Assembly (NCBI GenBank): GCA_965287045.1
Contig: OZ336883.1
Coordinates: forward strand, 21,390,001 to 21,454,000
Length of the DNA stretch: 64,000 nucleotides
Direction: 5' to 3'
DNA from: Carcharhinus amblyrhynchos
Taxonomy: Eukaryota
Shown here: positions 3,945 through 44,122 of the stretch, piece by piece
Layout of the letters: every line of letters starts with the position of its first letter
How positions within the stretch are numbered: position 1 is the first letter of the stretch
Notes under the pieces: generated by a model
Databases searched by the model: none
Seen by the model: only the letters and a program-made list of their open reading frames with translations
What the model was told of the DNA's origin: nothing
Translations under genes and position numbers: made by a program

Positions 3945-4226
3945 GTCACAAGTAGGCTTACATTAACGTTGCAATGAAGTTACTGTGAAAATCCCCTAGT
4001 CGTCACACTCCGGCACCTGTTTGGGTACGCTGAGGAAGAATTTAGCATGGCCAATTCACCTAACCTGGACATCTTCTGGAGGAAAGCGGAGCAGCCGGAG
4101 GAAACCCATGCAGACACGGGGAGAATGTGCAGACGCCACACAGACAGTGACCCAAGCCAGGAATCAAACCCAGGTCGCTGGCACTGAGAGGTAGCAGTGC
4201 TAACCACTGTGCCACCGTGCCGCCCT
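3945..4226 (-). mobile_element. V-SINE/HE1-like SINE, tail type B
   Basis: Full head GGCGGCACGGTGGCACAGTGGTTAGCACTGC plus tail B. Confidence 0.9.
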
Positions 4227-14700: not shown

Positions 14701-14947
14701 CAGTAATAATGGTTATTCAAAGAATATACTTAAATTACCCCCAATCTAAATTTATCTATTTTCCTAAACTCTGAGAATACACCTTCCCCAAAACAACATC
14801 CTATAGGTTCTAACACTGAGTCAAATCGAGCAACAACTACCAAACAGGACCTGTAGCTTTTTTTTTGAGGTTTTTCTTCTAATTTTGCGTATATAGCATC
14901 TGACACAGGCTGTTTTCTTTTTGATACAACAGCTTGCTTCCCTGAGA

Positions 14948-15156
14948 GTAAGAAGTCTCACAATAACGGTTAAAATCCAACAGGTTTATTTGGAATCATG
15001 AGCTTTCGGAGCACTGCTCCATCAAGTGAATCATGAGCTTTCACAGCAGCGCACCAAAAGCTCATGATTACAAATAAACCTGTTGGATTTTAATCTGGTG
15101 CTGTGAGACTTCTTACCGCGCCCACCCCAGTCCAATGCTGACATCTCCACATTATG
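14948..15156. mobile_element. Palindromic repeat family P1 (Penelope-like terminus, decayed hammerhead motif)
   Basis: Inverted arms GTAAGAAGTCTCAC...GTTTATTTG..ATCATGAGCTTTCGGAGC / AAAGCTCATGAT..CAAATAAACC...GTGAGACTTCTTAC. Confidence 0.75.
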
Positions 15157-23601: not shown

Positions 23602-24243
23602 ATGGCACAGTTGCAAAGTGGTTAGCACTGCTGCCTTACTGCACCAGTGACACGGATTCAATTCCCAGCTTGGGTCACTCCTTTCTATAGAGTCTGTACA
23701 TTCTCACACTGTTTGTGTAGGTTTCCTCTGGGTGCCTGAGCAGTGTCTATCTCGTGTGTGATGGGACACCAAGCAGGATATTACTGTGGAGCCACAGCTC
23801 AGGAACCTGCCTGCCATCCTGAATAGGATCGCAGACACATAGGTGGCCAATTAGCGAGACAAGACACCCATTTCTGCGTGTGTTTCCTCCAGGTGCTCCT
23901 CTCACACATTCTGAAAGACGTGCTGGTGAGATGCATTGGTGTAGAGATGCCGGCATTGGACTGGAGTAAATACAGTAAGAAGTCTCATGACACCAGGTTA
24001 AAGTCCAAAAGTTTATTTGGTAGCAAACGCTACTAGCTTTCGGGGCTCTGCATCTTTGTCAGGCAGAGCCCCAAAAGCTAGTGGCTTGTGCTACCAAATA
24101 AACCTGTTGGACTTTAACCTGGTGTTGTGAGACTTCTCATGAGGTGCATTAGGCCATGCTAAATTCTCCCTCAGCATACCTGAACAGGAGCCAGAGTGTG
24201 GCCACGAGGGGATTTGCACAGTAACTTCATTGCAGTGTTAATG
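23602..24243 (+). mobile_element. Tail-B SINE carrying two nested insertions
   Basis: SINE segments at 23602-23735, 23873-23937 and 24140-24243, separated by inserts with flanking duplications. Confidence 0.8.
23938..24139. mobile_element. Palindromic repeat family P1, variant subfamily, with target-site duplication
   Basis: Same inverted arms, flanked by TGAGATGCATT (23927-23937) and TGAGGTGCATT (24140-24150). Confidence 0.8.
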
Positions 24244-24589: not shown

Positions 24590-25510
24590 AAACGGTAAGG
24601 GTAAATAAGTCTCCACACATAGAAAGCAGGCAATCCTCCCGCTCTCGACGGCAATTGCTGTGTGCGCCTGCACCGGTCCCTTAGGGAGCAGCCGCCCACC
24701 TCCCCGACTGTTGACGTCGCCGGCACGGCGCCCGCATGCGCAGCGCCCCGGCCGGTGATTGGTTGGCGGCTGTGACCCCGGCGGCGGTGGGGGGTCACGG
24801 CGCACAGGATGATGGTCCAGTATCCATCATGGAGGCGATATTTCACGAGAAAGTAGGTGGAAGTGGCGACTGCGGTTTAAAATGGCCGTGGTGGTGGCTC
24901 ACCCGCAAAGCTAGCGGCGGGAAAGAGAGAGAGAGAGAGGCCCCGTGCCGGCTGATGTCGAGTTGCTCAATCCTGCCTTTCCCTTTTCTTCACCTTCCCG
25001 GGGTGGGGTACTTCACACACACAGCCCGTTGGCCGCCAGCGCCACAGGGTTCGCAGCCCTGGCAGCTGCATTTCTTCACCCCATCCCACCCCACACACCC
25101 ACCCCACCCATAACTCAGCTCCGGTACATTGAAATCAGTTTGCCCGCGGGGCTGTGTCGCAGTTCTGGCGGCCGAGGTGCGACTAATGTCCCCCGCCCCA
25201 CATCTAAAGAGAAAGCTGTAGCCGTTTCCCCCACAAAACATTCTACCAGACGGCAGAGGAGTGCTCAAAGTTAGCCGGCGATGTTTGTGAATCCTCCCCA
25301 GTTGGTCTTTTCAATTCGTGGAAGGGTTGAGTAAATCAGGGTTGAAACAGTCTCTGACTTCCCCTTTCTGGTCCAACAACACTTAGGATTTTTTTTGGAG
25401 CTGCTTTCGTCCAGTGCAGTTTTAATGACTGCATTTTGTATAACTCGCAAACGCGACGTACGGGGCACCATTTGAACGTGGGAAAAGTTGAACGTTTAGC
25501 CGGAAAAGTG
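24590..25510 (+). promoter_or_regulatory. ATXN3: ATXN3 CpG-island promoter
   Basis: CpG-rich island spanning exon 1. CRE-like TGACGTC (~24712), NRF1-like CGCATGCGCA (~24733), reverse CCAAT box ATTGG (~24758), YY1-like AAAATGGCCG (~24879). Confidence 0.75.
24829..24852 (+). CDS. ATXN3: ATXN3 exon 1, MEAIFHEK
   Basis: Equivalent to human MESIFHEK. 24 nt, donor AAA|gtaggt, Kozak atcATGg. Confidence 0.95.
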
Positions 25511-30190: not shown

Positions 30191-31482
30191 CTATCTATGT
30201 TCCTCACCCCGGAAATGTTCTTGTGGATCTTTTCTGCCTTTTATCTAATGTCTTTGTATTTTTCCTGAAGTGTAGCGTCCAAAACTGGATGCAGTACTAC
30301 ATTTCTATTTGTATGGTGTTCATTTGCCAGTACAGTCAGAGCTGTACATCTGCAACAGTGGATTGCTCTGGGTGAGATCAAGTAGGATTTTTCCTCATGG
30401 TTTCTTTCTAACATGATGCAGGCCCAGTCTGGCAGATGTCCTTTAGAGCTTGGCCAGTTCTCTCAGTTATATTGCTACCAAGCCACTTTTGGTGATAGAT
30501 AATGAAGTCGCTCAGCCAAAGTACGTTCCGTGGCCTTGCTATTCTCAGTGCTTTTTCCAAGTGGTGTTCAACATGGAGGAGTAGTGATTCTTGATTGAAG
30601 GAGAACTGCAAATGGTATTTAGCAGAATGTTTGACCTGATACCATGAGACTTCATGGGGTCTAGATTCAAACTTGGGACTCGCAGAGTTACTCCTTCCTG
30701 ACTATATACCTTTAGTGGGTCTGACCTACCTGTAGGTCAGGGCAACACAGGGATAGTGTTGACACTAGCTGAAAGATATGATTCATGAGTATGAGTGTGA
30801 GGCTTTTGTTTTACTAGTCTGTGAGACAGCTCTGTTAACTTTGGTACAAGTTCCTAGCGGTTAATGAGGAGGTGATTGCAGGTTGCATCTCCTGTCATTT
30901 CCTGTGCCAGATGGTCCATCCAGCATTTTTGACTTCTCTGAAGTGATTTGACAGAACTGCGAGACTTGTTTGGCCATTTCAGCAAATAGTTAAAAATCAG
31001 CTGTGGGCCTGCAGTCACACATAAAGTTCACCCAAGTGAAAATGGCAGGTTTCTTTCCCTAAAGATAATTGGTGAGCCAGATTTTTTTTTTAAAGATAAT
31101 CCAGTAACTTTGTGACCATCATTATGAAGACGAACCTTTTTATTCCAGGTTTGTTATTAATTGAAGTTTAGTTCCACCAGCTGCTGTGATGGGATTTGAT
31201 CTCCTGTCTCTGGAGTGTTAGCACTGTAAGAAGTCTCACAACAACAGGTCAAAGTCCAACAGGAGCATTAGTCCAGACCTCTGGATTACTAGTCCAATGA
31301 CATTAACACTATGCTACAGTTTCCCTAAATATAATTTGAGCATACAATGATGGCATCCTGTATTATTTCTGGCGCATACCCCAAAAGTATAAGAAGTCAT
31401 TGTTCATTTTGCGGTCCGCTCTTCCAGACGTTTTGTACGTGGAAGTCAAGCTTAGGCCATTGAAAATACAAAATGTGTCTGA

Positions 31483-32538: not shown

Positions 32539-32583
32539 CAACCTTCGGGGAACATGGATGATAGTGGATTCTTTTCAATTCAA
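32539..32583 (+). CDS. ATXN3: ATXN3 exon 3, QPSGNMDDSGFFSIQ
   Basis: 45 nt, tag/gtaagt. Confidence 0.97.
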
Positions 32584-34723
32584 GTAAGTATCTGAATTTA
32601 AGCCTATAAATCCTATAATTAAGCTTATAATATCTAGCAATAAACTTTTTATTTTTTCTTACCCTCTCCCTCCTTTGAAAGTGATTTGAACCAATTTTCT
32701 TTCTTTATCCTTGGAATTGTTAAATAAAGCAATCAAGTCATAGTAGACAGGGCTAGCAAGCGACATTTAATTAGATAGTTTGATTTGTTCTTTCCCTATT
32801 GCTCATCTACACTGTCATCATTTGCTTTTTACTTCTCATTTTAATTTCTAATCTGGCTTTCTCAGTCATTTTCTCCATGTTGTTTGTAAGTCAGTTCTGC
32901 AACTATTTCATCCAGATACCATCAGCATACCCTGTTTTTAGTATAGGAAAATGTATACAATTAGAATTTTCAGGAAATCTGAACGCCTGGCCCTAGTTAT
33001 CAGTGCCAAAGTACCTCTACCATTGACGCAGCTGATGGCTATTCTAAAGAATAACCATCAGAGAATTGAAGGGCGTGGGGGAGGGGTAATACTACAGCTG
33101 AAATTGGATGTGAGTGCAAATGACAATGTTAGTTGATAGTAGGTATAAAGAGGCTACCATTAATTTTCAAGGTTGCCTTGACACCACACCAACTCTCAAA
33201 TTAACAATGTTAGCTACTGAAGAAATGCACTTGTCCTGTGAGGAGGTAATATTTGAAGGTAGTGATTAATTAAATAGTAGTTTTCGCATTTTTGCCCCAA
33301 TTGATAATTGCAAAAGCATTGCTGTCAAATGTACTTTAATGTACACGCATATTTTTGGAAGCCAGAAATAGACATTAGCCAAACTTGGCCATAACCAAAT
33401 ATGTTCAGAAAAATTCACTCTATTTATCTTCTTAGCTATAATGCGTTAACATTTTATATAAGTTGTCAATTAAGATAACACAAAATGGAGGCAGAAGCAG
33501 TCAGGCTGAATAAATTTTAGTTCATTTTTGTGTTTATTCTCTTTACCAGATGAATCGCCAGATTAGATTGTTAATGAAGGAGCTGAATGTTTGATTAGTA
33601 CAATACATTGGCAATATAGCACCATCATCATCATGCAGTGATAAAGCAAATGCTTGTTCTTCCCCATCTCATTTCACCGAATGTTCTGTTATAGAGGTAT
33701 TGCTTTAGAATAGTGCCAAAAGATGGGAAAATTAGCTGGAAAATCATTACTGAATTGATTAGTTGCCAGCTCTCAGTGTCAGTTGATAACCTGTGCAACG
33801 TTCTGAAAACTAATTGCAAAAGCTATCCTCCACCTTTTTGATCAGTTTTTTTGTCATTGCAAATTTACTAACATGGACAACACAGTACAAGACTGAAAGC
33901 ACTGATTAAACTCTCTATTGCCAAAGCATTTTGAAGTAATGTTTTAGAAAAGTAAAATGAATGGTGGGGGACTACAATTGATGGAGGAATGGGAAATTTG
34001 GGGAATTCCTGTCCAGATATCCTAAAGCAATCAAATAATATTCCAGAATGTATCCAATCTTTAGAATAATTTCCCCCTCCCCAACACCCCCCTCCTCTTT
34101 GTGGATTAAGTTGAATCTTGCCGTGTTAATATTCTTTGATCAATAAGACATGAAAAAAATTGATAGAGAAGAGGACTCAATTTTACTTGTTTTTAAGATC
34201 ACTCTAAAATATAAAATAATTCAGTAAGTTAGATACATAAGCCATTTACCTCGGGTGAGGGAATCCAGAATGAGGAGTTACACCATTTTGGAGTGAAATC
34301 ACAAAGTACTTTTTCACGCACAGGCTAAAGGCAGTCTAGAATTCTTTCCTACACCACACCTACCAATGGTGTGAATGTTGGATCAACAGAAATGATCAAG
34401 CCACCAATTCACAGTGAGGGTATTAAGGAATGCCAGATCAACCATGATCTGATTGAATAGCAGACAGGCTTCAGGGACTGACCCACTTTTATTCTGATTT
34501 TGTTATTGCAAGCTTGCAAAGGGGAATTATGCGGAGTATTGTAAACATGATTGAAAATTACATGACACTTTGTGAGACCATTAAATAATGTTTTGTGCGA
34601 ACGTTGAGTTTTAAAAAATGCATAGTTGCACAAGATAATATAACAAAATACAGCCCAAGTAGGAACAATCCATTGCACCCTGGTTATTTCCATTGGGAAA
34701 ATAACTGCAAATATACAATTCCT

Positions 34724-34940
34724 AATAAGTCTCACAACACCAGGTTAAAGTCTAGCAGGTTTATTTGGTATCACAAACTTTCGGAACGCTGCTGCTTCAT
34801 CAGGTGAGTGATGATCACCTGATGAAGGAGCAGCACTCCAAAAGCTCATGATTCCAAATAAATCTTTTGGACTTTAATCTGATGTTGTGATACTTCTTAC
34901 TGTGCCCACCCCAGTCCAATGCCAGCATCTCCACATCATG
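34724..34940. mobile_element. Palindromic repeat family P1, best-preserved copy, with two back-to-back hammerhead-like motifs
   Basis: Arms of ~85 bp (34724-34807 and 34815-~34900), each beginning TCACCTGATGAAG. Confidence 0.82.
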
Positions 34941-35154
34941 AGCTCCTAATTGGTTGAGGGAGGGAAGAAATGATACCTTGGGCTGCAAGAAAATGCAAGT
35001 AATAGCCCTTTGCTGAAGCATGTCTTACAGGTTGGAGCACAGACTTTTGCATGTGTTAAAACCAGGTGTTGCTTTTCAAATTACGTATTTTAAGTGGGTT
35101 CTACTGTATTGTTGTAAAATCCAAAGAGCTTTCAAAGCAATTTTATTTCTACAG

Positions 35155-35240
35155 GTGATTAGTACTGCCTTGAGTGTTTGGTGTTTAGAGATTACCCTCT
35201 TCAACAGCCCAGAATATCAGCGATTAAGGATTGATCCAGT
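35155..35240 (+). CDS. ATXN3: ATXN3 exon 4, VISTALSVWCLEITLFNSPEYQRLRIDP(V)
   Basis: 86 nt, cag/gtaaga. Confidence 0.96.
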
Positions 35241-40989: not shown

Positions 40990-41820
40990 AGCACAGGAGA
41001 AGGTCATGTACTGATCGGGTCTGAGCTGGCTCTTTTGATGAGCAAGCCAGTTAGTTCCACTCCCATGTTCTTTCCTCAGATCCATGCAATTTCCATTTGA
41101 AGATACTGTTGAACCTATATCCACCAACCTACCAGGCAGTGTATTCCAAAACCTGATCACTTGTTGCGTTAAAAATAAGTTGTTTTTCTTGTACCATCAC
41201 TAGTTCAAAGCTTAAATCTTTGTCCTGTCATAATTGACCCTTCAGCCATCAGAAACAGTTTCTCTTTACTTATTCTTTCCAAGCTCTTCACAGTTTTGAT
41301 CAACACTACCAGATCTACTCTTGGCCTTCTCTGCTCTAAGGAGAATGACCCCAGCTTGTCCAATCTTTCCACACAATTAATCGATCATCCAATCTAGCAA
41401 ATGTGTCTGTACTCTCTCTAAATCTTTCTTGTCTTCTCTGAAGCTTGATGTCCAGACAGCGTGGTGGCGCAGTGGTTAGCACCGCTGTTTCACAGCACCA
41501 AGGACCTGGGTTCGAGTCCCAGCTTGGGTCAATGTCTGTGTGGAGTGTGCACGTTCTCCCTGCGTCTGCATGGGTTTCTTCCCACATTGTGAAAAACATG
41601 CTTGTTAGGTGCTTTGACCCAAACAGGCATCAGACTGGCGACGAGGGGAATTTCACAGTAACTTCATTGCAGTGTTAATGTAAGCCTTAGTTGCGACTAA
41701 TAAATAAACTTTACTTTAGAATTACACACTGCTCCAACTGAGACCAAACTAGTGTTTTTATCTTGGTTTAACTTAACTTCCTGGCTTTTGTACTCTATGC
41801 CTCTATTTATAAAGCCCAGG
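40990..41820 (-). mobile_element. Decayed CR1-like LINE interrupted by a SINE at 41455-41717
   Basis: The - strand reads IRFWNTLPGRLVD. LINE sequence resumes after the SINE. Confidence 0.65.
41455..41717 (+). mobile_element. V-SINE/HE1-like SINE, tail B
   Basis: Head GGTGGCGCAGTGGTTAGC...GGTTCGAGTCCC plus tail B. Confidence 0.88.
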
Positions 41821-43889: not shown

Positions 43890-44122
43890 AAAATTCAAAT
43901 TACTGCAGGTGCTGGAATCCGAAAGCAAAAGAGAAAATGCTGGAAAATCTGAGCAGGTCCGGCAGCCTCTGTAAGGAGAGAAAAGAGCTGATGTTTCAAG
44001 TCCAGATGACTCTCTATCAGCTTTGACAAAGTGTTATCTGGACTCGAAGCGTCAGCTCTTTTCTCTCCTCACAGATGCTGCCAGGCTGGCTCAGATTTTC
44101 CAGAAAATTTTCTCTTTTGGTT
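43890..44122. mobile_element. Palindromic repeat family P2 (Penelope-like terminus); related copies at ~20-190, 940-1055, 42925-43045, 47005-47140 and 54490-54630
   Basis: Inverted arms AAAAGAGAAAATGCTGGAAAATCTGAGC..GGCAGC.TCTGT.AGGAGAGAAAAGAGCTGA / TCAGCTCTTTTCTCTCCT.ACAGATGCTGCC..GCTCAGATTTTCCAG. Confidence 0.78.

Follow-up and report, generated by a model that had tools for sequence, protein, structure and literature searches.

The window analysed here, a 64,000-nucleotide (nt) stretch of the shark Carcharhinus amblyrhynchos genome (contig OZ336883.1, positions 21,390,001 to 21,454,000), contains exons of ATXN3, which were placed by translation at 24829, 31961, ~32539, 35155 and ~35484. 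The second of these matches the Pfam Josephin domain (E 3e-17), and contigs from four probable RNA runs of other organisms join 32583 to 35155 at GT..AG borders. Together, exon placement, domain match and splice joints agree with the first-pass annotation in assigning the element under study to ATXN3 intron 3. No RNA record containing the focal stretch was found, and the contigs of other organisms fixed the exon joints only. The element is a 218-base palindrome, tail included (34723–34940), built around an inverted repeat of two 85-nt arms (34723–34807 and 34815–34899) that are 81% complementary and separated by a 7-nt spacer. The interval 34771..34851 originally assigned to it covers both hammerhead ribozyme motifs but not the whole element, whose tail reaches 34940. 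The features are given below, where pLTR denotes the pseudo-LTR of a Penelope-like element (PLE) and profile positions refer to a family profile built from 47 genomic copies.

32584..35154, + strand: ATXN3 intron 3, the host intron (exon placement, Josephin match, RNA-contig joints)
34720..34726, + strand: left copy of a weak 7-bp target-site duplication (score 6, threshold 8)
34723..34810, − strand: inverted, 5′-truncated, tail-less pLTR arm, profile positions 372 to 285 (8 differences from the family profile over 88 nt)
34771..34807, − strand: minimal hammerhead with intact CUGAUGA and GAAA, broken helix II (G10.2>C), AGCU>AGUU and C17>U
34808..34814, no strand: arm junction, in which 34809–34814 repeats six letters of the ribozyme core
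34815..34851, + strand: minimal hammerhead on the ATXN3 sense strand, with G12>A (34840), G1.1>A (34848) and a loop G>A (34835), all at CpG
34815..34899, + strand: direct 5′-truncated pLTR arm, profile positions 288–372 (9 differences in 126 nt, tail included)
34900..34940, + strand: one-sided PLE tail of ~37–40 nt, ending at the ATG 34938–34940 that starts the ORF in full elements (copy L059 continues into ORF-start sequence)
34944..34950, + strand: right copy of the weak 7-bp target-site duplication
14947..15155, + strand: second family stub, tail on the right, ribozyme cores deleted or truncated at the centre
23937..24141, − strand: third family stub, tail on the left, different helix II

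Both hammerhead motifs read as annotated, and they are the only two matches in the window to a relaxed descriptor of the minimal hammerhead (min-HHR); among 200 Markov-1 control windows, none gave two matches and two gave one. An Rfam search returned no hammerhead among 13 matches at E ≤ 5, and the best of these, a miRNA hairpin, was rejected as a generic stem far below its gathering score. The consensus proposed from the window, TCAC CTGATGA A GGAG cagcg CTCC GAA AGCT C GTGA, corresponds to profile positions 288–324, and the intact 35-nt consensus ribozyme occurs as 599 exact copies genome-wide, against 0 for the control. Of the copies at 14948 and 23938 that had been combined into it, the former has no complete CUGANGA on either arm and the latter has a different helix II. 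The family ribozyme contains the CUGANGA and GAAA boxes and the UH triplet and, at profile positions 299–320, an extra base after A9, the G10.1–C11.1 pair and a palindromic 15.2–16.2. Its helix II covaries, with 42 of 44 cells Watson–Crick across 11 variants each seen at least 5 times, and with G-C/A-U swaps at pairs 2 and 3; in a shuffle control that averaged 32.2, none of 10,000 trials reached 42, a statistic in which the relatedness of the copies is uncontrolled. Helix I (UCAC/GUGA) is nearly invariant, one common variant in the young sister family described below breaking a pair; of the covariation anticipated for both helices, only that of helix II is seen.

Minimal hammerheads are known from the pLTRs of metazoan PLEs (Cervera and de la Pena 2014, PMC4209133). 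As described there, and as here, they are type I, devoid of helix III, palindromic at 15.2–16.2, and carry an extra base between 9 and 10.1, a G10.1–C11.1 pair, a short helix I and many variants per genome. The initial identification as a minimal type-I hammerhead of a Penelope pLTR thus agrees with the boxes, extra base, palindrome and covarying helix II of the family. Dual motifs on opposite strands have been reported in Schistosoma at 100–700 bp apart (PMC4209133), whereas the focal motifs lie 7 nt apart and are decayed. Sharks are unnamed among the hosts in the available portion of that paper, while the focal family is a shark one; its supplement, like that of the retrozyme preprint discussed below, may list chondrichthyan motifs.

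G12 is a catalytic residue of the hammerhead. The sense-strand motif has lost it and has its first helix-I pair broken, while the opposite motif keeps both boxes but combines a broken helix II with a damaged AGCU palindrome. As the first pass had suspected, both focal hammerheads are probably inactive, judging from their sequences. Decay at CpG, the cause proposed for several of the lesions, accounts for GAAA>AAAA and for four of the nine changes on the + arm in all, but for only one of eight on the − arm. Genome-wide, the C11.1–G12 CpG is intact in 2885 instances, reads G12>A in 1970 and C11.1>T in 2290. This decay is near-symmetric and shows no surplus of the catalytic loss; selection to kill the ribozyme was rejected, the G12>A change being no commoner than its mirror image.

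A long hairpin is predicted for either strand (−97 and −107 kcal/mol, z about −11), which in the sense transcript would comprise ~85 bp and lie 255 nt upstream of exon 4. Within it, the pair probabilities of the ribozyme helices are 0, and an intact copy folded within its own palindrome gives the same value. Whichever strand is transcribed, the ribozyme would pair with its antisense arm, leaving both focal motifs masked in these models. Dimer cleavage has been described by Lunse et al., as cited in PMC6765202, but the “back-to-back” pair offers no dimer partner within one RNA, because the motifs lie on opposite strands and each strand carries one ribozyme and its antisense.

The focal element has a great many relatives. 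A search with it gave 6191 first-look candidates, and all 40 scored places matched on both strands. The 30 aligned copies most like the query have common outer ends and differing centres, and one arm of the aligned copies carries ~37 extra bases ending at ATG; some junctions recur among these 30. At a threshold of 8, target-site duplications were scored in 21 of the 30 old copies and in 4 of 870 pairs of mismatched flanks; the focal duplication taken alone, at 6, falls below it. A 664-kb sample chosen regardless of family content, of which 264 kb comprise the window and its surroundings, holds 50 arms, namely 16 inverted pairs and 18 arms unaccompanied by a close inverted partner; in all 16 pairs exactly one arm bears the tail. 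Rough extrapolation from this density gives on the order of 10^5 decayed stubs genome-wide. The window also contains a very short fourth fragment of the family in ATXN3 intron 1 (31221–31263), consisting of two ~40-nt overlapping arm ends.

What, then, is the parent of these stubs? The hammerhead motif sits in the pLTR of a protein-coding PLE. In longer copies the pLTR arm sequence follows an RT/endonuclease ORF, and even among copies picked by their 3′ end alone, some run upstream into the end of an ORF. One copy (L042) holds an RT and endonuclease fragment whose protein matched 150 scored places, with open frames of up to 979 codons. The adjacent Penelope coding sequence that the first-pass annotation had suggested looking for is therefore present: long copies with the focal helix II (L107, L108, L110) continue into endonuclease and RT coding sequence, and in L186 an intact ribozyme is joined to 1033 nt with 76% and 299 nt with 85% identity to a younger element. 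The long copies of the focal subfamily are thus contiguous with homologous but broken coding sequence, and a non-exhaustive search found no intact ORF of this old subfamily.

The younger element belongs to a sister family 77–79% identical to the focal one over the pLTR end. Of 20 stretches retrieved around RT matches, 4 hold open frames of 917 codons, and the family's pLTR–ORF–pLTR unit measures 3026 bp and carries intact hammerheads. An 893-aa protein of this family matches RVT_1 (E 1.5e-9) and, by eye, contains DKG, CX4CxxC and a GIY-YIG-like core. Since Pfam GIY-YIG gave no match on this protein, the endonuclease call rests on these motifs; a genome search with the same Pfam model gave three places, none near the focal pLTR. 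The CX4CxxC linker ahead of GIY-YIG was seen in the L088 protein and in pieces of L186. A CX2-5CxxC linker in this position is the Neptune/Nematis pattern (PMC8557442), and on the strength of these motifs the element is likely of that type. The architecture of a single ORF with RT and a putative C-terminal GIY-YIG, flanked by direct pLTRs, is intact in the sister family, while the ORF is absent from the focal stub. Members of the young family (L086–L105, e.g., L088:2841-6023; G000:C1:24052500-24062499) have intact ORFs and may be active; their pLTRs are 99–100% identical within one insertion, and at least eight helix-II variants occur. Five of them (L091, L092, L096, L097, L100) are near-perfect palindromes of 3.6–6 kb with long open frames in both arms, the arms being 98.8–99.4% identical.

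This young family preserves insertion ends to the base. A 35-mer diagnostic of it has 14,490 exact matches genome-wide, and 89 young arms were mapped in DNA fetched for 90 of the first 100 matches listed. Among the 26 young inverted pairs shorter than 2 kb, 25 bear a single tail, on one of the two arms, and an arm of the remaining pair continues into a tandem unit that has a tail. The arm that lacks a tail stops at an almost constant position, ~37 nt short of where the tail ends. At the other extremity the ends of paired arms correlate (Spearman 0.87; in 17 of 26 pairs the two ends lie within 15 nt of each other, against 5.5 when permuted), and 18 of 20 readable pairs have the same helix-II variant on both arms, the other two differing. 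No two of the 24 young palindromes inspected have the same centre, and most show clear target duplications of ~9–13 bp. Across the palindromes in general, sizes are continuously graded from ~180 bp to 6 kb, the largest with ORFs in both arms. Because the centres differ between copies, each mirror was likely made at insertion. Read in this way, the palindromes represent inverted, truncated insertions of elements that code for protein, and the surmised non-autonomous ribozyme-bearing family is unsupported.

Nearly all young arms (84 of 89) run past the cleavage site, and of 84 uncensored ends, 30 fall within −15..+14 of an Inr-like A that lies ~30 nt downstream of a TATA-like box, a density of ~1 end per nt compared to 0.2–0.4 on either side; the old arm ends cluster there in much the same way. 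The peak, situated near the ribozyme 5′ edge, is broad, and no sharp transcription-start cliff is seen among the young ends, which makes the start-site reading only a hint. In Drosophila virilis, the Penelope promoter is internal and TATA-less (PMC2377424). Cleaved RNA was rejected as the usual template, as only 5 of the 89 arms stop at the cut or 3′ of it, and two of these stem from one duplicated event. The latter is a young single-arm insertion, duplicated with its flanks (L240 and L243); its 5′ end coincides with the site of hammerhead cleavage, so that cut RNA may occasionally serve as template. In L225, L257, L260 and L271 the joints carry short templated duplications reminiscent of microhomology end joining.

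Taken together, these data argue, with a probability of roughly 85%, that the focal element is an old 5′-truncated inverted insertion of an endonuclease-bearing PLE, likely of Neptune/Nematis type, whose hammerheads are damaged and likely inactive pLTR passengers. The first-pass annotation was right about the PLE identity and wrong about the class: the locus is best described as the decayed remnant of a truncated PLE insertion rather than as a non-autonomous ribozyme element. In the proposed mechanism, the PLE protein would make a staggered cut ~9–13 bp wide and reverse transcription would be primed from each of the DNA ends, at a pair of RNA sites separated by ~37 nt and mostly on uncut RNA. 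Both cDNAs would stop early, often near the ribozyme 5′ edge at the TATA/Inr-like start, and would then be joined by microhomology; in the focal copy, the six-letter repeat at 34809–34814 resembles a templated insertion at such a joint. Neutral decay would follow, fastest at the CpGs holding G12 and G1.1. Two-sided priming on uncut RNA fits the one-arm tail, the correlated arm lengths, the read-through of the cleavage site and the stops near the ribozyme 5′ edge.

This arrangement of inverted 5′-truncated copy, one-end tail of 30–40 bp and target-site duplication is the published insertion layout of endonuclease-bearing (EN+) PLEs (Craig et al. 2021, PMC8557442; Arkhipova et al. 2013, PMC3846280), just as pLTR hammerheads were already on record. 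EN+ units as portrayed in these papers share with the shark elements the inverted pLTR, the tail at one end, a duplication (8–10 bp), a pLTR that overlaps the ORF start, and TATA- and Inr-like motifs. Unlike them, the focal unit consists of two ~90–125-nt arms devoid of an ORF, a size class that is a major product here. How PLE inverted repeats form has been termed undefined (PMC8557442). In vitro, the Poseidon element of Anolis carolinensis extends both strands, and two RT start sites bound the tail (Frangieh et al. 2024, PMC11167929); as in the present proposal, both DNA strands are cut and extended and uncleaved RNA is the main substrate. In contrast to the shark element, Poseidon represents its own clade and its ORF begins inside the ribozyme. 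Moreover, no difference in start site was seen between its strands, whereas in the shark genomic pairs a single arm bears the tail. A tentative extension, which we hold at somewhat less than even odds, is that the shark stubs constitute a genome-scale record of twin-primed integration, in which one protein dimer would use both RT start sites, one per DNA end, with one and the same uncut RNA usually serving both; the short palindromes would be run-offs from start sites at the transcript's 5′ end to the promoter just upstream of the hammerhead. If true, the formation of PLE inverted repeats and tails would become directly testable, given thousands of near-identical young copies and intact ORFs. 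A search of the literature, largely of open-access main texts, listed no paper on hammerheads in shark PLEs or on PLE twin priming.

The strongest competitor keeps the PLE identity and differs on the origin of the mirror: in a fold-back, one cDNA (or antisense RNA) would prime its own copying. Such self-priming has been proposed for rotifer PLEs (PMC3846280), and it would account for the near-equal arms of many young pairs (−518/−520, −273/−274, −30/−31) and equally predicts the helix-II variant common to both arms in 18 of 20. Yet the arms are discordant in two pairs, L259 (which has two common family variants) and L265, and the near-fixed end of the tail-less arm, ~37 nt before the tail end, matches the second RT start site of PMC11167929. 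Fold-back is accordingly rated the less probable origin, though a substantial one. On their own, the different ribozyme variants on the arms of L259 and L265 suggest two templates or gene conversion.

Considerably less probable is a SINE/MITE- or retrozyme-like mini-element, palindromic and non-autonomous, that would be transcribed and moved as one unit. The very many short, similar-sized copies (the 6191 candidates and 50 arms per 664 kb), the few recurring junctions among the 30 copies most like the query, and the reported capacity of PLE proteins to mobilise pLTR-flanked DNA in trans (PMC3846280) are in keeping with it. Against this, the centres of the 24 young palindromes inspected all differ, the helix-II variants number at least six, sizes range continuously from ~180 bp to 6 kb, and fixed internal structure was not seen in the copies compared. 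The animal non-LTR retrozymes (10.64898/2026.07.22.740005) do resemble the focal stub in being PLE-derived and protein-less and in bearing a type-I hammerhead, but they are defined by head-to-tail tandem units with ribozymes on one strand. Those units are absent here, where the arms are inverted, head-to-head, with one ribozyme per strand. Least probable of all is a functional ribozyme or hairpin retained to regulate ATXN3 pre-mRNA through cleavage, dsRNA editing or a cryptic splice donor: the predicted sense hairpin upstream of exon 4 and the donor-like CAG|GTGAGT that the antisense pLTR of the left arm presents at 34801–34809 (+) are set against the loss of G12 on the sense strand, a 7–9% divergence of the focal arms from the profile that is ordinary for a family with a median identity of 85%, and the direct splicing of exon 3 to exon 4, donor unused, in the four RNA-run contigs of other organisms, which may lack the focal copy.

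On the truncated PLE insertion reading, the focal locus itself is probably of little consequence, an inert insertion scar and one of many decayed stubs. The family adds a shark-type PLE with minimal hammerheads, an addition of modest importance, and the young sister family supplies base-exact insertion ends that bear on how PLEs build inverted repeats. Elsewhere in the window, a tRNA-related SINE-like repeat is present in many copies (e.g., 398–536, 4078–4216 and 41463–41582), and another palindrome at 43927–44116, with 93-nt arms, 81% complementarity and a 4-nt spacer, is unmatched by the Penelope-family profile.
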